Source: an uncultured Eubacteriales bacterium (GTDB lineage: Bacteria; Bacillota; Clostridia; Oscillospirales; CAG-272). From it: 64,000 nucleotides of DNA. The stretch is taken from the NCBI GenBank assembly GCA_934432725.1, contig CAKRZE010000001.1, positions 137,945-201,944 of the forward strand. The letters are read 5' to 3'. The first letter of the stretch is position 1, and each line of letters begins with the position of its first letter. The notes under the pieces were generated by a model. It saw only the letters and a program-made list of their open reading frames with translations, had not been told where the DNA came from and did not search any database. The translations under genes were made by a program, and so were the position numbers. Of the stretch, positions 489 through 60,454 are shown one piece after another.

Positions 489-679
489 CTTTGGGTTGCG
501 TGCAGAATTGCGGGAAAGGTCATGACCGCCAAGGTTACATACGGCACATAATATAAAAATGACCGAAGAAATCGGTTCCGGATCTCCCTGCGGATCAGGG
601 TCAGAGGGGTCACACGGATCAGATACGTGACAAGCGCCATCACGGCAATGTAAATATATGTATTATGCTGCATGTTCAT
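362..679 (-). CDS. azlD: AzlD-family branched-chain amino acid transport protein
   Basis: Small hydrophobic protein (MNMQHNTYIYIAVMALVTYLIRVTPL...). The internal ATG at 679 overlaps the azlC stop, the classic azlC-azlD arrangement. Confidence 0.8.
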   Translation of the reverse strand: MNMQHNTYIYIAVMALVTYLIRVTPLTLIRREIRNRFLRSFLYYVPYVTLAVMTFPAILHATQSQWSGLLALVAGILLSWFGADLTKVSVGCCIIVFLSELILCR

Positions 680-3134: not shown

Positions 3135-3826
3135 TGTCCGTAACCGTTGCTTTTGCGGAAGAAAAGCTTCCTTTCCCGGATTATTTTTATTACAGTATCG
3201 CTCTGCGATTCCTGACCCGCTTTCGTTTCCTGTTTCTCGGTGCATCAGGCAAAAGACTGCCGAAAACGCCTCCGGTCAAAGAGCTGCAAAAAGATACGAT
3301 AGCATAAGCCGGATTGATTATAGCACAGAGTAAAAACGCTGTCAAGTAAGGCGGATTCTCCAGCCGGAGCGCGGGCAGAAAAGGAACAGATTTTTCTTGT
3401 ACATTCGGTTATTCCCGCACAGTCACACTGTCCAAGGGGGAATTCGATTCCGGCACAGTCGGCCCGCATTGGCGGCAAGAGTACGAAGCCTGCGGGGCTT
3501 TTTTACCGAACACAGAAAGCCCGCCATGAGGTTCTCTTTCGGAAAGAAATTAACAGCTCCTCGAAAACGCCGGACTGGATTCCTGCATTTTTGATGCAAT
3601 CTTGGTGTTTTTGCCCCAGAGTCTTTGGTTTTCGGATGATTCCGCGGCAAAACCGCAGCGCCTGACCGCCGAGACCAACGCCGGCGTAGCGTAAAAACGC
3701 AAAACGTGTTTTCTACGCTCCTATTTTCCGGGAAATACGGTCCGCATTTCCTCGGAAAATGCCGCAGCATTTTTCTTTTTGCACATATTTTTTTCTGATA
3801 TTCGTACAAAACGCCGATAGTGTCGA

Positions 3827-14812: not shown

Positions 14813-15504
14813 ACGATATCTCCTGTATAACAAAAAGGCATTGTATCGTTCTATCATTATTTTCGAAAACGGAAGCATATGCACAGAGCGGAAAAATAAA
14901 TTTCTATTTAGAATAATAGACACAGAAAATTACACACTGCAAAATATGGAAGAAATCCCATGCAAAGAGAAATCGTCATAAAAAAACGTTTTCGCATACG
15001 GAATGAGGCTTTATGTTATCATATGACAAACAAAGAACCGGGACCGTATCACTTATACAGACAATTCTTTTGGGCTCTTTGTGATACGAAGGACAGCCGC
15101 CACGACAGTCATACAATCTCAATCTCATGAGGAGCGTCAGTATCAAAGCTGTCATAATAAGGAGCTGCGGGACGCTGTCCATCGGCAATCCGCTAAAATG
15201 AGCGACAGGATCTAAAGCCAAAATCGGGAACACCTCACATCCAAATGGAGTTCAACTACGTTTCGCAGTGCTGTATATACAGGATAACTTTATTGAGACG
15301 CGAAGCAATCGTATGATAATTATGATAATTCGGTTTTTTACTTTGGAACTCAAGTATTGTAATTCGCGAACAATTTTGAATTGCTGCAAATCGTAAACAT
15401 TAGTTTGCCTACAACTTGCCACGGGCTGCCTGTGGATAAAAAACTGTAGATGAGTAGATAAATGGCAGAAACAAAAATCAGCAATCACCAAAAAAAATCA
15501 AAAT

Positions 15505-15630
15505 TCTCCAAGTGCCGTATGGAAGCCAGAGACAGAACGGGAGTCTGATATTACACGGCGGGAATTTGATATTATATTTGAAGCAAAAAGATTACCTGAT
15601 CGTTCCAGACGGCGGCTGTATCGCCGATAA
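15505..15630 (+). pseudogene. Remnant of the 3' end of a third PHP histidinol-phosphatase-like gene, in a low-GC context
   Basis: In-frame translation SPSAVWKPETERESDITRREFDIIFEAKRLP parallels HSPDAVWKPETEREADALRQEFGLTLVPEMKL of the gene at 17218-18003. A stop lies only ~20 codons upstream, so just the tail survives. Confidence 0.5.
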
Positions 15631-17217: not shown

Positions 17218-18003
17218 TTACAGACAGGAAAACGGATTGCGAAGCTTCATTTCCGGAACGAGTGTCAGACCGAATTCCTGCCGCAGTGCATCCGCCTCCC
17301 GTTCCGTTTCCGGCTTCCATACGGCATCCGGAGAATGGGCATCGCAGCCGTAAATAACCGGATTCTGCATTTCGCCCACGATCTTAAGAAAACGTCTGCT
17401 CGGATAATGCCGGCGTTCCCTCAGACCCAGAAAATTAATTTCCAGGGGAATATCGCATTCCTTTGCGCAGGCACAGAGCCGACGCATTTCTTTCTCATAT
17501 ACCGCATCGTCACCGGTAAAATTCAACACATCCGGGTGTGCCATATAGGAAAAGCAGCCGGTCCGAAGCCCCTCACAGGTCTGATCCACAAAGCATTTCA
17601 GAATATCGGGGTTATCGGTGGGATTCGGACACCACCATGCACCCTCATCAAATTCATTTTTGGTAAAATGCTGCCCCATAATCAGATAATCCAACGGATA
17701 GTCATGCAGAAAAGCAAGCGTTTTCCGGAAAAGCTTCGGATAATATTCCGCTTCAAACCCGATCAGGATCCGGATATCGTTCCTGTATTCCTCCCGCAGA
17801 CGAAGAAGTGTTTCAAAATAGTCCGGGGTATCCTCGTGCGTCACACGGAAGCCGGAATATTCCCCGCCTTCAAAAACATAGGGAGAATGATCCGAAAATC
17901 CGAGGATCCGGATGCCATGTGCAATCGCCGTTTCGATATATTCGCGCTCTGTTCCGACGGCATGGTGACAACGAAAGGTGTGTGTGTGATAATTGGCGTA
18001 CAT
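17218..18003 (-). CDS. Histidinol-phosphatase, HisJ/PHP family
   Basis: MYANYHTHTFRCHHA... PHP metal-binding N-terminus with further His/Asp motifs. 261 aa, the typical HisJ length. Confidence 0.8.
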   Translation of the reverse strand: MYANYHTHTFRCHHAVGTEREYIETAIAHGIRILGFSDHSPYVFEGGEYSGFRVTHEDTPDYFETLLRLREEYRNDIRILIGFEAEYYPKLFRKTLAFLHDYPLDYLIMGQHFTKNEFDEGAWWCPNPTDNPDILKCFVDQTCEGLRTGCFSYMAHPDVLNFTGDDAVYEKEMRRLCACAKECDIPLEINFLGLRERRHYPSRRFLKIVGEMQNPVIYGCDAHSPDAVWKPETEREADALRQEFGLTLVPEMKLRNPFSCL

Positions 18004-18065: not shown

Positions 18066-20405
18066 TCAGCCCTGCGCTTCCGTTTTATCTATGATGTCCG
18101 GATAAAATTCCCCAAACTTCAGGATACACTCCGGAATATCCTTCGGGAACCCGCCCGGAAATGTGACGCGGACAGAGATACTGACCGGCTCATCGGACAA
18201 CGAAGCATAGTCCTCAGACTGAATTAAAATATACGCGTAATACATGTCCGCATTGATTGCAGGTTCCTTTCCGAGGATATTCAGAAGGAACGAAAGGCTG
18301 TCTGCAACATCATCCCGATCGTCGGCCGCGTCGCCGGTATTGTACGGCAGACGGATATGCGCCTCCCGTGCGTTATAATTGTCGTAAAGATCAAAAACCA
18401 AATAGTACTGCCCTGTGATTTCATTCCGCTGCATGGCTTCCAGTATCTCAAATGCCCGATCGACCTCAGCCTGCTCTTCCGCCGCGACATAACTCCTGTA
18501 TTTGGCAGCTGCCTGCGGGCAGATATCCTCATAGAGCGGAATGCGCACCCGAATGCTTTTCATCTCCTGAACGGTCGAAACCGCAAAGGTGCAGAGCGGT
18601 CCGTCGGGATTGTAGGTCCGTTCCGCCGATTCTTCGTCTCCGGAACCATATGTCGGAACAGACAAGCCGTGAAGCCGGTTGTACCACGCGGTAAAATCGG
18701 AAACGGCGACCTCATACCGCATGATATCATAGACCTCCTTCAGCTGCTTCTGCGTCAGCTTCGTGCCTTCCTGATAAATCATAATATCCTGTTCGCTGCA
18801 CTCCGGCAGATTCATATAAAGCTGTCGGACCTCGTCATTGTCCCGCAGCATTCTGACAATCATCTGCATATCAACGGAAGAAATATATATGCGGCGGTAA
18901 CGGGTTCCGCCTGCCGTCCGGATGCTGCAGGTGATAGTCTCCACGAAATCCCCATAATTATTGTAAGAATCAGCCTGTTTTTCGTAATAGGACTTGATCT
19001 GCTCTTCAATATCGGCATATGGCGCTTTTTTGTTCTTCAGATTTTTCACGTTGTTCTGCAAGGACCGGGAAATCATGAGAATGGTATCATGATCCGTAAT
19101 CCGGAGTGCCCCGATTTTCTGCTCCAGATAGCCTTGGAAGGTGTATACAGAGGAAGATGAGAGTTTTGTGACGTCCGGCAGAATGCTGATGCTTTGAATC
19201 TGCTCCTCGGAGGGCGTATAGTTCAGCGCGGCAGAATGAGCACCGAACAGCCCTCCGATCAAAGCACCGTTGAGCAGCACGACAATCCCGAGCGCGGGGA
19301 CGGCGCGGAGAAGATTCTTCCACTTTTTTGTGGTAATCAGTTCATAGATAAAGTAGATCAGGATCGCAATGATATAAAGCACCGTATACTGGAAGAATTC
19401 CGTGGAATGCATCCGATGCCCGGATATCAGATTATTGAACAGAATGCAGGTAACAAGAGAGCAGTATGCCATCGTTACGGTGATCCGGTACAGTGCCTGA
19501 AGCTTCCGGTTCGGTGCCGCAGCCGAGGCGGATTCCGACGGACGCTTCCGGAACAGAATACAGCCCGCCGCAAAATAAACCGCGGCAAGACAGAAGGTAT
19601 ACAGCGCAGCCTTCCCGCTTGTGAGAATCACCGATGGAGAAACGTCAAAGTAACTGCCGAACAAAAGATCAAACGTGCCGTACACACACCCGGTCACAAT
19701 ATTGTAATCGGAACCGAACAGCGGAAAAATCCGGTTTGTCACAAGAATCGGAAGCGCCTCTGTCAGGACATAGCAGATGAGAGCGATCAGAAGCCGCGGC
19801 AGAAAGAGCAAAAGTCCGCTCAGAATCAGATTGTTGAAGCGCGTGCCCGTGATGGACATTGCCGTCACGATTACGCAGGAAACCAGAAGCGAGGCGATCA
19901 GACAGTTCAGCGCCAGCATGAGCATAGAAGCAAAATTCAGAGCCAGAAAGCGATGACAAATCAGAATGGCAGTCACGGAAATCAAAGTGCTGCCGCCGAT
20001 GATAACGGCAAGCCATGTGGAAATTGCAGCCATAAAGCTGACATAAATACAGGTGCGGGTATGCGGAAGCGCGTGGTAAAAATCGGAGGTGTTCCGCTTA
20101 TTCAGAAAGCCGAATAAGCCGAGCGTCATAATCGGAGCAGCCAGAACAAAGGCTGCGATCAGAATCGGATGCACGGAAAGACCGATGACATGCTGCACAC
20201 TCGGCGTTCCGGAAAGTGCCGATGAATAATATCTGATGCGGGAAAGCTCGTTTACAACGTATCCGATCGGAAAAAGAATTGCTTCAATTGAGAAAATAAC
20301 AAGCATCAGGATCCCGGTCAGCTTCAGTTGCCTTAACCCCTCCAGATATAAACCGATCTGAAAAAATTTATTCTTTTTCATAAATAGAACCGTTGCCTTG
20401 CGCAA
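18066..20405 (-). CDS. Large ABC-transporter-associated permease with ~390 aa C-terminal non-membrane domain
   Basis: The N-terminal half has about 10-12 hydrophobic helices and the C-terminal half is soluble-looking. TTG start at 20405 with RBS AAGGAAG. It lies directly downstream of the ABC ATPase. Confidence 0.6.
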   Translation of the reverse strand: MRKATVLFMKKNKFFQIGLYLEGLRQLKLTGILMLVIFSIEAILFPIGYVVNELSRIRYYSSALSGTPSVQHVIGLSVHPILIAAFVLAAPIMTLGLFGFLNKRNTSDFYHALPHTRTCIYVSFMAAISTWLAVIIGGSTLISVTAILICHRFLALNFASMLMLALNCLIASLLVSCVIVTAMSITGTRFNNLILSGLLLFLPRLLIALICYVLTEALPILVTNRIFPLFGSDYNIVTGCVYGTFDLLFGSYFDVSPSVILTSGKAALYTFCLAAVYFAAGCILFRKRPSESASAAAPNRKLQALYRITVTMAYCSLVTCILFNNLISGHRMHSTEFFQYTVLYIIAILIYFIYELITTKKWKNLLRAVPALGIVVLLNGALIGGLFGAHSAALNYTPSEEQIQSISILPDVTKLSSSSVYTFQGYLEQKIGALRITDHDTILMISRSLQNNVKNLKNKKAPYADIEEQIKSYYEKQADSYNNYGDFVETITCSIRTAGGTRYRRIYISSVDMQMIVRMLRDNDEVRQLYMNLPECSEQDIMIYQEGTKLTQKQLKEVYDIMRYEVAVSDFTAWYNRLHGLSVPTYGSGDEESAERTYNPDGPLCTFAVSTVQEMKSIRVRIPLYEDICPQAAAKYRSYVAAEEQAEVDRAFEILEAMQRNEITGQYYLVFDLYDNYNAREAHIRLPYNTGDAADDRDDVADSLSFLLNILGKEPAINADMYYAYILIQSEDYASLSDEPVSISVRVTFPGGFPKDIPECILKFGEFYPDIIDKTEAQG

Positions 20406-20489
20406 GCGAAGGCTTCCTTTCTGTCTCAGAGGTGATCTGCCGCAGCGTGTTCTTCGGCAGAAATAACAGCGGATTCTTCCCTTTCGTAA

Positions 20490-21386: not shown

Positions 21387-21747
21387 AGCGGTCACTTCTT
21401 TCGCGTAACGAAAGCATCCTTTCTTACAAGATAAAACGCAAACTCCCGGAACATGTACGGCTGCCGCAAAAAAATGAAACGGAATCCGGCAGCCTTTCAA
21501 ATGGGATATAGCGCTTTGAAATGGCGGAACGGCGGAATATAGCCAGCCCTGACGGCAGGCTCGGCGCCAATCCTCAATCTTTGCAATGCTCAATCAATTC
21601 TTCAAACAGGCCTGATATTTTTGTACGGCAGTCGAAAGCTGCGTCATGGCAAGTGCTTCCGCACCGGAGCAAAACGCAGGAAAATGCTCAGAATCCGAAA
21701 TACAGCTCCCATTGGATATGTCCCAATGCGGCAAAACGCTTCAAGCG

Positions 21748-23993: not shown

Positions 23994-24176
23994 TCAGTCA
24001 TCCATTTTTTGTGTAATGATCGGTTTTCCGTCTTTATCCAGAAGCGGAGTCAGCCCGCCCGCATGTCCGTCTTGATGAAACAGATAATTTACACCTGTTT
24101 CATTATCTACCCAGATTTCCATGGTTGTCAATGTTCCCTGCGTATAAAGCACTTCGAACCGTTTCCCTTTTGACAT
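23994..24176 (-). CDS. Small conserved hypothetical protein (DUF6440-like)
   Basis: MSKGKRFEVLYTQGTLTTMEIWVDNETGVNYLFHQDGHAGGLTPLLDKDGKPIITQ. Strong RBS GGAGGAAAAG before the ATG. Family name is from memory of similar small Firmicute proteins. Confidence 0.6.
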   Translation of the reverse strand: MSKGKRFEVLYTQGTLTTMEIWVDNETGVNYLFHQDGHAGGLTPLLDKDGKPIITQKMDD

Positions 24177-24360
24177 TTCTTTTCCTCCGAATAAATGATT
24201 TCCAAACACTGTCATGATGCAATTACAGAAAGAAGCCTGAATCAACGATGCATTTTGAAACCCGCCCGGGATTGGCACCCGCCGCCGTCAGCATCGGTCA
24301 TTTCCAAAGGAATCCCGGAGAGGAACGGTATGCAGCCGCATAATGTTGATTCCGCCAATT

Positions 24361-24478
24361 CTGCCATGACGCAGCAAAAGTGGGCATTTTTGCGAGACCG
24401 TCAATTGCGCAGCCGCGCGGGGAGCGCGGACACAGCGCACAGCGGCTGGATTTTGCCGCTTCCGCAAAAGCTCTGCGC
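24361..24478 (-). ncRNA. A-type structured module (candidate ncRNA or cis-leader), copy upstream of the DUF6440-like gene
   Basis: On the minus strand: closing helix GCGCAG (24478-24473) / CTGCGC (24412-24407) encloses hairpins TTTTGC..GCAAAA, CAGC..GCTG and CCGCGC-TCCCC-GCGCGG. This is followed by AA, then TTGACGGTCTCGCAAAAATG. Same layout as modules at 45313-45420 and 45544-45660, with compensatory helix changes. Confidence 0.45.
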
Positions 24479-24489
24479 ATGATATCTCA

Positions 24490-24578
24490 AATCAAGCAAG
24501 CCTTCATGAATTTGCGGCGAAGCCGGCAAATTCGCAAAATGCGGCAGACCAACTATGCCTCTCAGGAAAATGTTATCC
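24490..24578 (-). repeat. X-type repeat module (head ATGCGGATAACA plus core CTGCCGCATTTTGCGAATTTGCCGGCTTCGCCGCAAATTCA)
   Basis: About 85% identical by eye over ~100 nt to 43623-43720, and ~75% to 45436-45537. Confidence 0.6.
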
Positions 24579-24584
24579 GCATTG

Positions 24585-24613
24585 ATTATACCATAAATCA
24601 TCTGAAAAATCAA
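24585..24613 (-). promoter_or_regulatory. Near-consensus promoter heading the X/A composite
   Basis: The minus strand reads TTGATT, then a 17 nt spacer ending in TGG, then TATAAT (extended -10). Confidence 0.55.
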
Positions 24614-24657
24614 TGCTTTCCTGACCGCCTTCCGAAAACAGTTCCGACAGTGCAGCC

Positions 24658-24681
24658 ATATCGATATAGTCATATCGATAT
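24658..24681. promoter_or_regulatory. Twin 10-bp perfect palindromes ATATCGATAT-AGTC-ATATCGATAT (operator-like)
   Basis: Read directly. Located between the divergent X-module promoter (24585-24613) and the nfnA promoter (24694-24722). Confidence 0.4.
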
Positions 24682-24693
24682 GCAATTTTTATA

Positions 24694-24722
24694 TTGCAAT
24701 ATAGAAAGCCCTGTGCTATAAT
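24694..24722 (+). promoter_or_regulatory. Promoter of nfnAB
   Basis: TTGCAA, then a 17 nt spacer ending in TGC, then TATAAT. Leaves a ~175 nt leader before ATG 24906. Confidence 0.55.
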
Positions 24723-36495: not shown

Positions 36496-36497
36496 CG

Positions 36498-36871
36498 CTT
36501 TGACCAGACCTGTAAGCCGGGTTCTGTCATATCCCTTTCGGAACGTTACGGTCATCTGTCTTGTTCTGCCGTTACCGGCAGACTCTGTGCCACCCAGGAG
36601 ATTCCGGCGGGCAGCCGTGACGGTTTCCCGTCCTCTCCACGGTGTTGCTTCGGATAGGGTTTACATTTGCACGGTGTTACCACAGTGCCGGTGAGCTCTT
36701 ACCTCGCCTTTCCATCCTTACATGATGAAGCCATCATGCGGTTTATTTCTGTTGCACTTTCCCGGAGGTCACCCTCGGCGGACGTTATCCGTTATCCTGC
36801 CCTGCGAAGCCCGGACTTTCCTCACGCTGACACCTTTCGGCAACACAGCGCGCGATCGTACCGTCTGGTCA
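36498..36871 (-). ncRNA. rnpB: RNase P RNA, bacterial type A
   Basis: The minus strand contains GAGGAAAGTCCGGGCTTC (36823-36806), GGGAAAGTGCAACAGAAA, GGTAAGAGCTCACC, and ACAGAACCCGGCTTA (36527-36513). P1 pairs GACCAGAC (5') with GTCTGGTC (3'). It has its own promoter and terminator. Confidence 0.9.
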
Positions 36872-43593: not shown

Positions 43594-43622
43594 TTTTCAA
43601 CCGCACATTCCTATGGTATAAT
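43594..43622 (+). promoter_or_regulatory. Promoter heading the X-type module upstream of the prs-like gene
   Basis: TTTTCA, then a 17 nt spacer ending in TGG, then TATAAT (extended -10). Confidence 0.45.
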
Positions 43623-43627
43623 AAATG

Positions 43628-43705
43628 CGGATAACATTTTCCGAATAGGTGCAACTGGTCTGCCGCATTTTGCGAATTTGCCGGCTTTGCCGTCAAATTC
43701 AAGAG
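43628..43705 (+). repeat. X-type repeat module
   Basis: GCGGATAACATTTTCC...GGTCTGCCGCATTTTGCGAATTTGCCGGCTTTGCCGTCAAATTCA. Matches 24490-24578 (minus) and 45441-45514 (plus). Confidence 0.6.
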
Positions 43706-43976
43706 GCTTTACTTGAATTTATGGATAATGTATCCGGTTTTATCTGTACATCGGTACGGCGGCAGCGTACCTGCCCTGATGTACAGTGCAAATGATGCTC
43801 CCCGGACCTGCGGCAGATGCATATATCCCTGAGCAGATGGCGCGGATATCTGATTTGCCCGCCCACGTCTGGATGTGTTTTTTCGGTTTCAAAGCTTTTT
43901 CATACGCCGAAAAGCGGTTTTTGTACACAAAACAATGTCAGCTCATCAATGATTTTGAAGAAAGGAATCCGCACCG

Positions 43977-45116
43977 GTGTGCGGATCGGGTATTTTCATG
44001 AACAGTGCTTTATACGGAGAACTCAGCGTAATCGGAACCTGCGGCTGTGAGCAGTTTCTGAAGAAGGTTGATTCTTATCTGCGCGAATGGCGCGGATCGG
44101 ACAGCTCTTTTATTACTGTACCGGAGTGCAAAAGGTTCGGTTCCGGTGAAGCAAAGGCGATGCTGCATGATTCCCTTCGCGGCTATGACGTATACATTGT
44201 CGCCGACATGTATAACTACGGTGTCAAATACCGGATGTACGGCGCGGAATATCCGATGAGCCCGGATGACCATTTTCAGGATCTGAAACGCATTATCAAT
44301 GCAATTGCAGGAAAAGCGCGCCGCATTTCTGTCGTCATGCCGATGATGTATGAAAGCCGCCAGGACAAGCGTCATATGCGTGAGTCTCTGGACTGCGCCA
44401 TGGCATTGCAGGAGCTTGAGAACATGGGAGTCTCCAACATCCTGACCTTTGACGTTCATAACATCGGCGTACAGAACGCGATCCCCCTGATCGGCTTTGA
44501 CAATATCAAATGTACATATCAGATGATCAAGGCTTTGGTTCGCGTGGAGCCGGACATTGTCGTGGATGCGGACAACCTGATGGTCGTTTCTCCGGATGAA
44601 GGCGGAATGGAACGCTGCATCTATTATTCCTCCGTGCTCGGCTGCGACCTCGGCATGTTCTACAAGCGCCGTGACTACACGATTGTTGTAAACGGAAAAA
44701 ATCCGATCGTTGCGCATGAATATCTCGGCAGACCGGTTGAGGGAAAGGATGTTATCATTGTTGACGATATCATCTCCTCCGGTGAATCCATGATGGATGT
44801 CGCATATCAGCTGAAGCAGCGCGGAGCAAAACGGATTTTTATCTTTGCGACCTTTGGTCTGTTCTGTGAGGGACTTGAAACGATTGATGCAGCATATCGC
44901 GCCGGCAATTTCACCAAGATCTTTACAACAAACCTGGTATACCGCAGTCCTGAGCTGCTTGCACGTCCATGGTATACGGAGGTTGACCTGAGCAAATATG
45001 TGGCGCTTTTGATCGATACCCTGAACCATGATGAAACGATCAATCATGTGCTGAACCCCGGCGAGAAAATCAAGGCATTGCTTGAGCGGCACAAATCAGC
45101 TCTTGAGCATTCTTAA
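43977..45116 (+). CDS. prs: Ribose-phosphate pyrophosphokinase-like protein (long form)
   Basis: Prs-type motifs: RRISVVMPMMYESRQDKR, DVHN, VSPDEGG, and the PRPP loop VIIVDDIISSGESM. A GTG at 43977 has an AAAGGAA SD 10 nt upstream. The alternative ATG at 43998 has no SD. Confidence 0.75.
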   Translation: MCGSGIFMNSALYGELSVIGTCGCEQFLKKVDSYLREWRGSDSSFITVPECKRFGSGEAKAMLHDSLRGYDVYIVADMYNYGVKYRMYGAEYPMSPDDHFQDLKRIINAIAGKARRISVVMPMMYESRQDKRHMRESLDCAMALQELENMGVSNILTFDVHNIGVQNAIPLIGFDNIKCTYQMIKALVRVEPDIVVDADNLMVVSPDEGGMERCIYYSSVLGCDLGMFYKRRDYTIVVNGKNPIVAHEYLGRPVEGKDVIIVDDIISSGESMMDVAYQLKQRGAKRIFIFATFGLFCEGLETIDAAYRAGNFTKIFTTNLVYRSPELLARPWYTEVDLSKYVALLIDTLNHDETINHVLNPGEKIKALLERHKSALEHS

Positions 45117-45281: not shown

Positions 45282-45310
45282 TTGAAATTTTCCCTATATT
45301 ATGGTATAAT
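45282..45310 (+). promoter_or_regulatory. Near-consensus promoter opening the module array
   Basis: TTGAAA, then a 17 nt spacer ending in TGG, then TATAAT. Confidence 0.6.
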
Positions 45311-45312
45311 AA

Positions 45313-45420
45313 CCGCAGGAAGGGCTGCCGAGCATCCCTTCGCGGCTGACGCCTCTCCGTGCTTCGCACGGCTGCGGCATTGACGGCTTCGCAAAAATGT
45401 CTGTGCAAGCACACATTTTT
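45313..45420 (+). ncRNA. A-type structured module 1 with intrinsic terminator (candidate small RNA)
   Basis: P1 CCGCAG (45313-18) / CTGCGG (45372-77). Hairpins are GAAGGG-11 nt-CCCTTC, GGC-TGAC-GCC, and CCGTGC-TTC-GCACGG. The tail is TTGACGGCTTCGCAAAAATG (45380-99). The terminator is AAAAATGTCTGTGCAAGCACACATTTTT (45393-45420). Confidence 0.5.
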
Positions 45421-45429
45421 GCTTCATGA

Positions 45430-45520
45430 TATAATAAATGTGGATAACAATCGCACGACAGGCGCAGTTAATCTGCCGCATTCTGCGAATTTGCCGGCTT
45501 TGCCGTCAAATTCATGACAT
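45430..45520 (+). repeat. X-type module inside the array, with its own TGaTATAAT box
   Basis: TATAAT at 45430-35, TGTGGATAACAA head, and core CTGCCGCATTCTGCGAATTTGCCGGCTTTGCCGTCAAATTCA (45473-45514). Confidence 0.55.
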
Positions 45521-45537
45521 CTTGCTTCAATCTGTAG

Positions 45538-45660
45538 TATAATACGCACAGGAAATCCTCTGCCGAGGCTTTCCGGGGCTTGACAGCCCACAGCGCGGCG
45601 CTTTGCCGCGCGTGCTCCTTGACGGGCGGCGTAAAAATGTTTGTGCAAGCACACATTTTT
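45538..45660 (+). ncRNA. A-type structured module 2 with intrinsic terminator
   Basis: TATAAT at 45538-43. P1 GCAC/GTGC. Hairpins are GGAAA-14 nt-TTTCC, GGGC-TTGACA-GCCC, and GCGCGGC-GCTTT-GCCGCGC. The tail is TTGACGGGCGGCGTAAAAATG, with the same terminator hairpin as module 1 (45633-45660). Confidence 0.5.
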
Positions 45661-45668
45661 ACTTGCGG

Positions 45669-45769
45669 TTTAATACGCACAGGAAACCCTCTGCCGAGGC
45701 TTTCCGGGGCTTGACAGCCCTCAGCGCGGCGCTTTGCCGCGCGTGCTCCTTGACGAGCGGCGTAAAAAC
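45669..45769 (+). ncRNA. A-type structured module 3 (direct repeat of module 2, no terminator hairpin)
   Basis: 95 nt at 45675-45769 differ from 45544-45638 at 3 positions (period 131 nt). Preceded by a degenerate TTTAAT. Confidence 0.45.
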
Positions 45770-46104
45770 ACCACATCCTCCTCATTTTATCATATCCGGC
45801 TGAAAACTGTCCGGCATCTTGTACCGTAACGCACCCTGCACAAGGCAAGAAAAACTCTGCGGCAGCAGGCGCTCCGACCGCATGCAGATTCTGCCCACAA
45901 TGTCTCGGCAGAAATTTCATATCCTTTTTCGCCAACCATATTTCGTTTCAGCAACCGATTCATCCACGGACATTTATATACTCAACCTCTGTTTTCAAAG
46001 TGCAAAGCTGCTCTGCCGCACAGTTGCAAGCAGTACAGTATTCAACTGCGGCATTCAAACCAACTGAAGCCATCACCGGCATACGCAAGAAAGGAATTTA
46101 GCAT

Positions 46105-60300: not shown

Positions 60301-60454
60301 GACCGTTGCTTTCGCCTGACGAAAGCTTCCTTTCTTCGGGAGTGAGGCGGTCTTTCCGGTTCATCCTTCTTTTCCGGCAGATCAAAACCGCAAGACCGGA
60401 TCAGAGCCGTAAAGCCCGATCCTGATACCCTCAAAATAATATCATTTGATTTTG

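Follow-up and report, generated by a model that had tools for sequence, protein, structure and literature searches.

Background

The described systems closest to the elements reported here are tandem arrays of promoter, small RNA (sRNA) and terminator, and modular repeats of intergenic regions. Each of the cyanobacterial NsiR1 repeats has a promoter, an sRNA of about 60 nucleotides (nt) and a terminator, the BOX elements of Streptococcus pneumoniae are composed of boxA, repeated boxB and boxC, and bcr1-18 are repeats of the Bacillus cereus group. REP, BIME and REPIN elements go with RAYT transposases, and IS200/IS605 elements insert by a short specific sequence without target duplication. Phage N4 virion RNA polymerase uses hairpin promoters, and d(GCGAAGC) and d(GCGAAAGC) form very stable mini-hairpins. 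Here we describe two families of structured units, A and X, from a 64,000-nt stretch of the genome of an uncultured Eubacteriales bacterium (contig CAKRZE010000001.1, positions 137,945 to 201,944; hereafter the window), starting from an X-plus-A locus at 24358-24613 on the minus strand, which lies upstream of a 60-aa DUF6440 gene and which a first-pass annotation had taken for part of a leader of about 400 nt of that gene. Searches of the literature, by topic and by sequence string, returned no description of these units.

By analogy, the units appear to work most like the tandem NsiR1 arrays and the modular intergenic repeats (BOX, bcr, REP/REPIN). As in NsiR1, head-to-tail repeats with a promoter element and a 3′ hairpin each stand upstream of a gene; NsiR1, however, is one locus with one sequence, whereas the units described here are dispersed before many genes while keeping their structure, have a closing helix that reaches upstream of the expected transcription start, and carry a hairpin that is weak as a terminator. 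With BOX and bcr they share the use of few module types in variable number and order, the intergenic position, stable predicted folds with compensatory changes, and a copy number that varies between strains. Unlike BOX and bcr, they go with -10 boxes and have the orientation of the gene that follows, in every locus where such a gene is callable, they contain a 57-nt block conserved across distant species, and no terminal inverted repeats or target duplications were found for them. IS200/IS605-derived PATEs (PMC8049555) served as a further comparison. The likeness to REP, REPIN and PATE lies in structure-defined hairpin repeats in clusters or tandems, which would act as single-stranded DNA (ssDNA) with one active strand; the differences are the four-way junction, the old and divergent copies and the orientation fixed relative to the promoter, and no Y1/HUH transposase was identified for the units in the 64 kb of genome covered. 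Short C-G-closed GNA and GNRA hairpins on the template strand near transcription starts, where the tail of the units reads GCGAAGC, recall the N4 hairpin promoters, but the units are chromosomal, lie behind sigma-A promoters and have three hairpins plus a closing helix, and no N4-type polymerase is implied.

By the features tested, the units are not riboswitches, tRNA-like elements or miniature inverted-repeat transposable elements (MITEs). The MITE assignment was rejected on two grounds: the closing helix varies between copies and is not a conserved end sequence, and the 5′ and 3′ boxes of single units differ (for example TGATATAAT versus TGGTAGAAT), hence there is no fresh duplication. A tRNA-like cloverleaf, with its 7-bp acceptor stem and 7-nt anticodon and T loops, was likewise rejected, as ARAGORN detected no tRNA or tmRNA in the window and the loops of the units are mostly 3-4 nt. 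For integron attC sites, which fold on the bottom strand, no core sequence (GTTRRRY) was seen by eye at the unit ends, and no search for intI was made.

Pairing is conserved while sequence changes

The A and X units form two families of structure-conserving modules that accompany -10 boxes and point in the direction of the gene behind them where one can be called, a conclusion that we regard as solid; equally solid are the lack of gene specificity and a block-wise turnover, by gain, loss, duplication or replacement, where -10 box and start site meet. An A unit consists, in order, of an extended -10 box (TGGTATAAT), 2 nt, the 5′ strand of a 6-bp closing helix (P1), a hairpin H1 of about 10 bp in which a T·C mismatch is frequent, a 5-bp hairpin H2, a 6-bp hairpin H3, the 3′ strand of the closing helix (P1′) and a 57-nt block (ATTGACGGNNTCGCAAAAATGCCCTTGCAAGCAAGCATTTTTGCTTCATGGTATAAT). 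This block, which comprises the tail ATTGACGGNNTCGC, a hairpin between A5 and T5, TTCATGG and the next extended -10 box without a -35 element, is almost invariant from low-GC to high-GC organisms, while the stems follow the local base composition.

In an alignment of A units made from sequence only, 85.7% of the cells were paired, versus 35-49% when partners were slid, and 260 cells showed double changes against 69-97 in the slid controls. The model-fitted alignment of 75 distinct copies gave 91.6% paired cells (32-53% in slid controls), 369 double-change cells (48-74) and a covariation score of 0.374 (at most 0.067), with changes on both sides for all 26 of the 26 pairs of the junction. The fitted alignment is biased toward structure, and the unfitted one gives the same picture; the metagenome counts include related sequences, for which the slid-partner controls correct and shuffle controls do not. 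From the raw MAFFT alignment, RNAalifold retrieved H1, H3 and the conserved hairpin only in part; the full structure was drawn up manually and adjusted afterwards by means of a covariance model. For the X family (22 copies), both helices covary, with 86.7% of cells paired versus 35-44% in slid controls and 27 double-change cells versus 3-8; examples are the change from ATGCGG/CCGCAT to ACGCGG/CCGCGT in the closing helix and from GAATTTGCCGGC/GCCGTCAAATTC to AAGTTTGATGC/GCATCAAACTT in the hairpin. Judged from these alignments, the A-type fold is real and unannotated, and its covariation is as strong as that in curated RNA families.

The compensatory change from which the first-pass annotation had argued was confirmed: the A unit at the DUF6440 locus (A4) has GCGCAG/CTGCGC where module 1 (at 45313, with tail TTGACGGCTTCGCAAAAATG) has CCGCAG/CTGCGG, a double change at the outer pair. 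In the alignment of homologues that it had proposed as a check, the helices were not often broken by uncompensated changes.

The X3-A4 locus upstream of the DUF6440 gene

The order of elements described earlier for this locus, from the promoter through the X-type module, the TATCAT box and the A-type module to the ribosome binding site (RBS) and the 60-aa gene, was recovered on the minus strand as follows.

24608-24613, minus strand: -35 hexamer TTGATT, which fronts X unit X3 (TTGATT-17-TATAAT with TG, 10/12 matches in the promoter scan)
24585-24593, minus strand: extended -10 box TGGTATAAT; an equivalent box fronts every unit of both families
24491-24584, minus strand: X-type unit X3 (nhmmer E=2e-35 with the X profile)
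24582-24577 with 24544-24539, minus strand: closing helix of X3, ATGCGG/CCGCAT
24533-24508, minus strand: hairpin of X3, GAATTTGCCGGC-TTC-GCCGCAAATTC
24479-24484, minus strand: -10-like box TATCAT, which joins the 3′ end of X3 to the 5′ end of A4 and aligns with the TATAAT of other A units
24407-24478, minus strand: A-type unit A4, four-way junction (covariance model match 24489-24354, 56.2 bits, E about 1e-10 in the window)
24478-24473 with 24412-24407, minus strand: P1 of A4, GCGCAG/CTGCGC, perfect pairing
24469-24451, minus strand: H1 of A4, TTTTGC/GCAAAA, 6-bp helix with a 7-nt loop
about 24448-24433, minus strand: H2 of A4, weak
24429-24413, minus strand: H3 of A4, CCGCGC-TCCCC-GCGCGG, perfect pairing
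24385-24406, minus strand: conserved tail AATTGACGGTCTCGCAAAAATG of A4, nearly invariant family-wide
24374-24393, minus strand: truncated remnant (GCAAAA...TTTTGC) of the family A5-hairpin-T5, in A4
24358-24366, minus strand: 3′ box TGGCAGAAT, a degenerate extended -10 box aligned with the family 3′ box
23994-24176, minus strand: 60-aa DUF6440 gene (Pfam PF20037, E=3.9e-26)
24581-24696, minus strand: candidate decayed A-like unit upstream of the X3 promoter (covariance model 18.8 bits, E=0.05; weak, and may be chance)

The scores of both the X and the A module lie far above what chance would give. The spacer of the X3 promoter is 17 nt long and ends in TGG, with TATAAT at 24590-24585. The tail quoted in the first-pass annotation as TTGACGGTCTCGCAAAAATG, with its 3′ end at 24385, had been called conserved, and is indeed nearly invariant across the family. 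The recurrence of an X module followed by an A module holds as well, both within the window and, with an X-like form, in other species. The DUF6440 gene has the RBS GGAGG at 24188-24184 and its ATG at 24176, 182 nt past the A4 3′ box. The weak model match at 24581-24696 recurs in strain L142.

A4 is an atypical, partly degenerate member of its family. As a whole unit it folds no better than shuffled sequences (z=-0.7; junction alone z=-2.2), and its 3′ stretch of 37 nt, with the remnant hairpin and a second small helix, folds at -7.6 kcal/mol, compared with -12 to -14 kcal/mol for intact copies. Because the A4 hairpin is truncated, transcripts from the X3 promoter, from TATCAT or from both probably run into the DUF6440 gene, and as modelled A4 may locally be part of its 5′ leader; the 3′ box TGGCAGAAT could act as a promoter driving this gene.

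A side observation at this locus concerns 24657-24682, where CATATCGATATAGTCATATCGATATG contains ATATCGATATG twice, as an 11-bp hairpin or palindrome. With the X3 promoter on one side and the divergent oxidoreductase gene on the other, this sequence is a candidate operator.

Further copies in the window and in other genomes

The window contains five more units, all on the plus strand.

45302-45439, plus strand: A-type unit A1, box to next box (142 bits, the best copy in the window; four-way junction fold, z=-3.5)
45427-45544, plus strand: X-type unit X2, X profile match
45535-45678, plus strand: A-type unit A2 (78.6 bits)
45666-45770, plus strand: A-type unit A3, a tandem copy of A2 with 97% identity and no 3′ hairpin
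43614-43731, plus strand: X-type unit X1, behind the ancestral -10 box of prs and in front of the prs leader, absent from the first-pass annotation

All units of the window start directly after a TGnTATAAT-type box. Folded as RNA, A1-A3 give a four-way junction with a hairpin behind it, and their z values lie between -3.5 and -4.1. As the hairpin is truncated in A4 and absent from A3, the last unit before each gene here has lost its hairpin. The X hairpin is similar to the A tail (ATTGACGGCTTCGC) in its 5′ arm and loop (ATTTGCCGGCTTCGC; 24517-24530 and 43677-43690), and from this likeness X and A units may share ancestry in that part.

A covariance model built from 63 A copies finds 77 units in 75 sources with a G+C content from 0.29 to 0.60, and the pattern of the A tail matches at least 120 metagenome loci, with two chance matches inside genes among the matches listed; many of the contigs in that list are labelled as human gut metagenome assemblies. 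The spacing of units in A arrays is 124-128 nt. The X core pattern was found, among the species genomes scanned, in only one further species, the Clostridia metagenome-assembled genome (MAG) HGM12657, where it occurs on six contigs and often in tandem; an iterated X profile yielded about 25 distinct copies, in the window species and HGM12657 and none elsewhere. The units of the two families, each about 100 nt long, occur directly behind promoters in many uncultured gut and rumen Clostridia. The 57-nt block and the covariance model offer a reusable means of annotating promoters and start regions in such genomes. A sibling of X, X′, with ACACGGTATAACRTT...TTACCGTGTCYGCGA, a 9-bp hairpin and TCCGACG, was observed in L014 (at 6755), L035, L056, L078, L084, L113 and L119; it neighbours A units in arrays of other species, and is sometimes fused to an A unit that lacks the box and the 5′ strand of P1.

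The A family is uncatalogued. At gathering score, Rfam 15 matched nothing in the window other than the RNase P RNA gene; at E up to 10, both loci gave noise only (at most 17 bits, against cut-offs of 47-80), and units from other species had no match on either strand at E up to 0.1. Plasmid and phage collections held no match to A1, a scan of viral contigs with the X core returned nothing, and the same scan with the A tail gave one real copy (on the viral-labelled L012) and three chance matches.

Several resemblances noticed by eye were discarded, namely a weak sigma-28-like sequence (GCCGTCAA), an 8-nt identity of ATTGACGG with the 915 region of 16S rRNA that is likely a chance match, and a weak likeness between GCGGATAACA, a sequence of X, and lacO or a DnaA box. 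A 28-nt similarity between 24316-24343 and 773-800 also looks like chance.

Promoter elements and downstream genes

Of 75 distinct first or single boxes, 39 are preceded by a -35 element (at least 4/6 matches at 16-18 nt), compared with about 11% estimated by chance, whereas by the same criterion none of six internal boxes is. Each repeat seems, by its sequence, to bring its own promoter, in the form of an extended -10 box to which first boxes often add a -35 element. A co-oriented open reading frame (ORF) with a Shine-Dalgarno-like motif lies downstream in all 66 of the 66 distinct loci listed, in about half of them within some 110 nt of the tail end. Where the ORF is close, as in L020 and L052, the 3′ box of the unit looks like the promoter of the gene. 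Fifty downstream genes span 64 Pfam families, of which the OmpR-type response regulators are the commonest with four members, and none of the 50 is a DUF6440 gene.

These counts bear on the proposal that the locus is a structured leader of about 400 nt, riboswitch-like or otherwise gene-specific, that controls the DUF6440 gene. Its position upstream of the gene and in the same orientation, and the degenerate A4 hairpin, which makes read-through likely, are what such a leader would have. The specificity to DUF6440 did not hold, since the co-oriented genes are of so many families, the units have their own -10 box, and the number of X copies at this very locus differs between strains. The nucleotides of the junction and loops vary, with conservation confined to the tail, the hairpin and the box, hence there is no candidate ligand pocket, and Rfam gave no match; we consider a DUF6440-specific leader hardly credible. 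In L056, a ZMP/ZTP riboswitch (RF01750, 45.2 bits; 559-668, minus strand) is located between an array of A and X′ units and purE, so that the units there sit upstream of a genuine gene-specific leader. Look-ups of the DUF6440 protein returned only strains of the window species, and synteny via the HAD hydrolase beside it was abandoned, as this protein is about 90% conserved in unrelated contexts and yielded no orthologous locus.

The hairpin within the 57-nt block raises the question of termination. Its upper stem alone amounts to -1.9 kcal/mol, and the total of -12.3 kcal/mol depends on the A5:U5 pairing; only UU remains past the full stem, and the hairpin was not called by the terminator scan. 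As modelled, it is a poor intrinsic terminator. The tail can also form a small fold, UUG-A-CG-[GNNU]-CG-CAA, which shares sequence with the conserved hairpin in the 5′ arm of the latter, and the units could thus be general attenuators in which a trans-acting protein stabilises the tail hairpin and allows read-through from the upstream promoter, as in RAT systems. Like riboswitch and RAT leaders, the units have a structured region and then a hairpin with a U-run upstream of a co-oriented gene wherever one is callable, the small and large hairpins are mutually exclusive in the way that RAT overlaps its terminator, and the two variable positions NN fall in the loop of the small hairpin. The tail hairpin has a stability of only -1.2 kcal/mol, however, and is invariant, hence beyond covariation testing; the large hairpin terminates poorly; a promoter box directly past an attenuator is unexpected; and, unlike such leaders, the units have no conserved junction core and precede unrelated genes without a shared function. 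We therefore view a general attenuator as very unlikely.

Turnover between strains and sister species

In strains L001 and L002 of the window species, two X copies rather than one precede A4. One versus two A units were found at the same locus in different samples in three cases (L030/L036, L043/L055 and L034/L051), for which a collapse in assembly is possible. Loci of the L033 type and L050 keep the 57-nt block while most of the junction is gone, and L027 has an internal duplication.

The sister species represented by L148, with 89% nucleotide identity in prs and the same SIS-prs-ATPase gene order, has neither X1 nor the array A1-X2-A2-A3. Homology between L148 and the window stops 2 nt past TATAAT at the prs promoter, and at the A1 promoter it stops after TATACTAAGCCGCAG, with the 5′ strand of P1 kept, so that at both loci homology breaks about 2-9 nt past the -10 box. 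In three more prs orthologues the promoter is shared up to the box and is followed directly by a short leader, without X1. The nearest named relatives of the window prs are from Ruminococcaceae and Clostridia MAGs, at about 69% identity.

Two further observations were made on these sequences. L015 shares its upstream flank with a response-regulator locus (the L024 cluster) and its downstream flank with another (L057/L125), with the join at an A unit, which is either recombination between units or an assembly chimera at the 57-nt block. The prs leader after X1 (43727-43960, plus strand) contains about 230 nt that are missing from L148, including a long hairpin (CTGTACATCGGTACGG...CCTGATGTACAG) and T-runs, and may hold further unit types.

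Which strand carries the fold

Covariation alone cannot tell which strand, or which nucleic acid, folds. A sigma-A promoter is expected to start transcription about 7 nt past the -10 hexamer, and the window supplies an internal control for this distance.

36497-36871, minus strand: class A RNase P RNA gene (rnpB), 256.6 bits, with TTGACA-16-TATAAT; the RNA starts 7 nt past the box

The outermost pairs of P1 involve the third and fourth nt past the TATAAT hexamer, and both covary in the fitted alignment (first pair CG 18, AU 14, GC 11 and UA 7; second pair CG 46, UA 10, AU 7 and GC 6). The 5′ strand of P1 therefore lies upstream of the expected start, and with the majority of copies being first units, the missing strand cannot come from transcription through a preceding unit. 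When the RNA is folded from the predicted start, the unpaired P1′ strand has no consistent alternative partner.

The composition of the helices does not favour RNA of the promoter strand either. No enrichment of G·U was detected: alongside about 1600 Watson-Crick cells, G·U or U·G accounted for 43 cells and A·C or C·A for 73 (31 G·U against 41 A·C without terminal pairs). Read on the strand opposite to the promoters, 30 of 73 triloops among 137 distinct hairpins are GNA and 14 of 42 tetraloops are GNRA, compared with one and none, respectively, on the promoter strand. Mismatches on the promoter strand are C·U or U·C in 66 cases and G·A or A·G in 20 (p about 7e-7), and are thus mostly G·A on the opposite strand, where the apex of the conserved hairpin reads G(CUUG)C and the tail GCGAAGC. 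The asymmetry of loops and mismatches and the lack of a G·U excess fit a fold of one strand at the DNA level. The first-pass annotation had read the conserved pairing as selection on RNA structure; that pairing is kept while sequence changes is borne out by 75 distinct copies from many organisms, whereas the position of P1, the G·U counts and the loops speak against an RNA of the promoter strand. A closing helix that reaches upstream of the start and stable loops on the template strand are not explained by an ordinary sRNA or riboswitch.

Each unit might nevertheless be an autonomous sRNA gene on the promoter strand, producing an RNA of about 105 nt, with the arrays as tandem sRNA genes in the manner of NsiR1. 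In such an RNA, H1 would be the 5′-terminal stem-loop, followed by H2 and H3, the single-stranded CUGCGG-AUUGACGGCUUCGC would be a seed or a protein-binding site, and the conserved hairpin would be the terminator. Perfect -10 boxes with frequent -35 elements, a predicted start 2 nt before H1, the presence of the U-run hairpin in 49 of 65 minimum-energy folds, the 124-128 nt spacing of arrays and a 57-nt block that stays invariant at 29-60% G+C, as fits a conserved binding partner, are all consistent with this proposal. It does not account for a P1 5′ strand that covaries outside the RNA in copies that are mostly first units, nor for the absence of a G·U excess; the promoter-strand loops (UNC and UNYC) match no known stable motif, the hairpin is weak as an intrinsic terminator, and some loci keep the 57-nt block without the junction. 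Complements of the tail as seed targets were looked for in the window and found only in the units themselves and in the tail-like arm of the X hairpin, and the seed-target idea was dropped. We regard an autonomous sRNA gene as a possibility of some weight, although an unlikely one.

A structured RNA transcribed from the strand opposite to the promoters (the plus strand at the DUF6440 locus), either as a cis-antisense RNA to promoter-proximal transcripts or as a leader of divergent genes (24789/24907), would include both strands of P1 and would carry the GNA, GNRA and G(CUUG)C loops; its mismatches would be G·A rather than C·U, and G·U would exceed A·C. The plus strand here also runs toward the divergent oxidoreductase operon. 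Against this, no recurrent promoter was found on that strand, where one sigma-70-like site was detected in three tandem units; a weak extracytoplasmic function (ECF)-like TGCAAG-N16-CGTC, read by eye and rejected as a candidate, is not kept in variants, A1 among them. No terminator follows single units on that strand, the upstream neighbour lies on it in only 36 of 80 loci, and triloops are in general more typical of DNA than of RNA hairpins. A structured opposite-strand RNA is in our view distinctly unlikely.

Promoter-embedded cassettes as a tentative explanation

The explanation that we prefer, although only tentatively and with somewhat less than even confidence, is that the units are promoter-embedded cassettes whose helices are kept on ssDNA or on the promoter-complementary strand and not in the primary transcript. 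A resident, captured promoter would transcribe into the unit, and the unit would hand on an extended -10 promoter without -35 element to the next unit or gene. With helices maintained on ssDNA or the complementary strand, the units would be closer to a structured intergenic repeat of the REP, BOX or bcr kind than to a riboswitch.

A number of points weigh against such a cassette. Covarying four-way junctions are far more typical of RNA than of DNA, and we know of no process that would expose the template strand as ssDNA here. The 5′ box is almost always a perfect TATAAT, which suggests selection for transcription of the unit, as for an sRNA gene. Nothing linked the units to a transposase, a recombinase or a reverse transcriptase in the 64 kb, and copies within a single genome are 60-88% alike, so that there has been no recent burst as in active mobile elements. 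L148, in which there is a possible remnant of the tail (ATGACGGCTTCCG), may have lost its units by deletion and would then not show an empty target site, and some of the differences in metagenome copy number could be assembly artefacts.

A more specific proposal, which we put forward as rather improbable, is that the units are structure-defined non-autonomous elements that land where strong promoters are melted. Their target would be the 6 nt from -10 box to start, which form the 5′ strand of P1 and would be read by pairing with P1′, much as group II introns and IS200/IS605 elements read their targets. The captured promoter would transcribe the element from its first base, the host would be repaid with a replacement -10 box, and the fold would be selected on the complementary strand, as cDNA or ssDNA; AAGCCGCAG, past the box in the unit-less L148, would then be an empty target site. 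Depending on the answer to the strand question, the units could turn out to be a DNA structure coupled to promoters, a system of antisense RNA or a mobile element that targets promoters, and each of these would have a bearing on the construction, insulation and exchange of promoters in these genomes.

Other features of the window

A start-region layout consisting of GAAAGGA(AGC), a covarying hairpin of 6-8 bp, AACGGT, 4-8 nt and ATG was observed on the minus strand at 1442-1474, 3143-3175, 20389-20421, 21391-21423 and 60302-60334, and in the prs leader at 43958-44000 on the plus strand. As long as the hairpin is not formed, some 35 nt separate the Shine-Dalgarno sequence from the start codon in this layout, and the prs start-region hairpin covaries in four orthologues (L139, L140, L141 and L148). 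The window also contains a 185-nt inverted repeat (2-186 and 17244-17428, 94% identity), with weaker copies at 94-180, 15503-15589 and 17273-17336, about 15-17 kb away.

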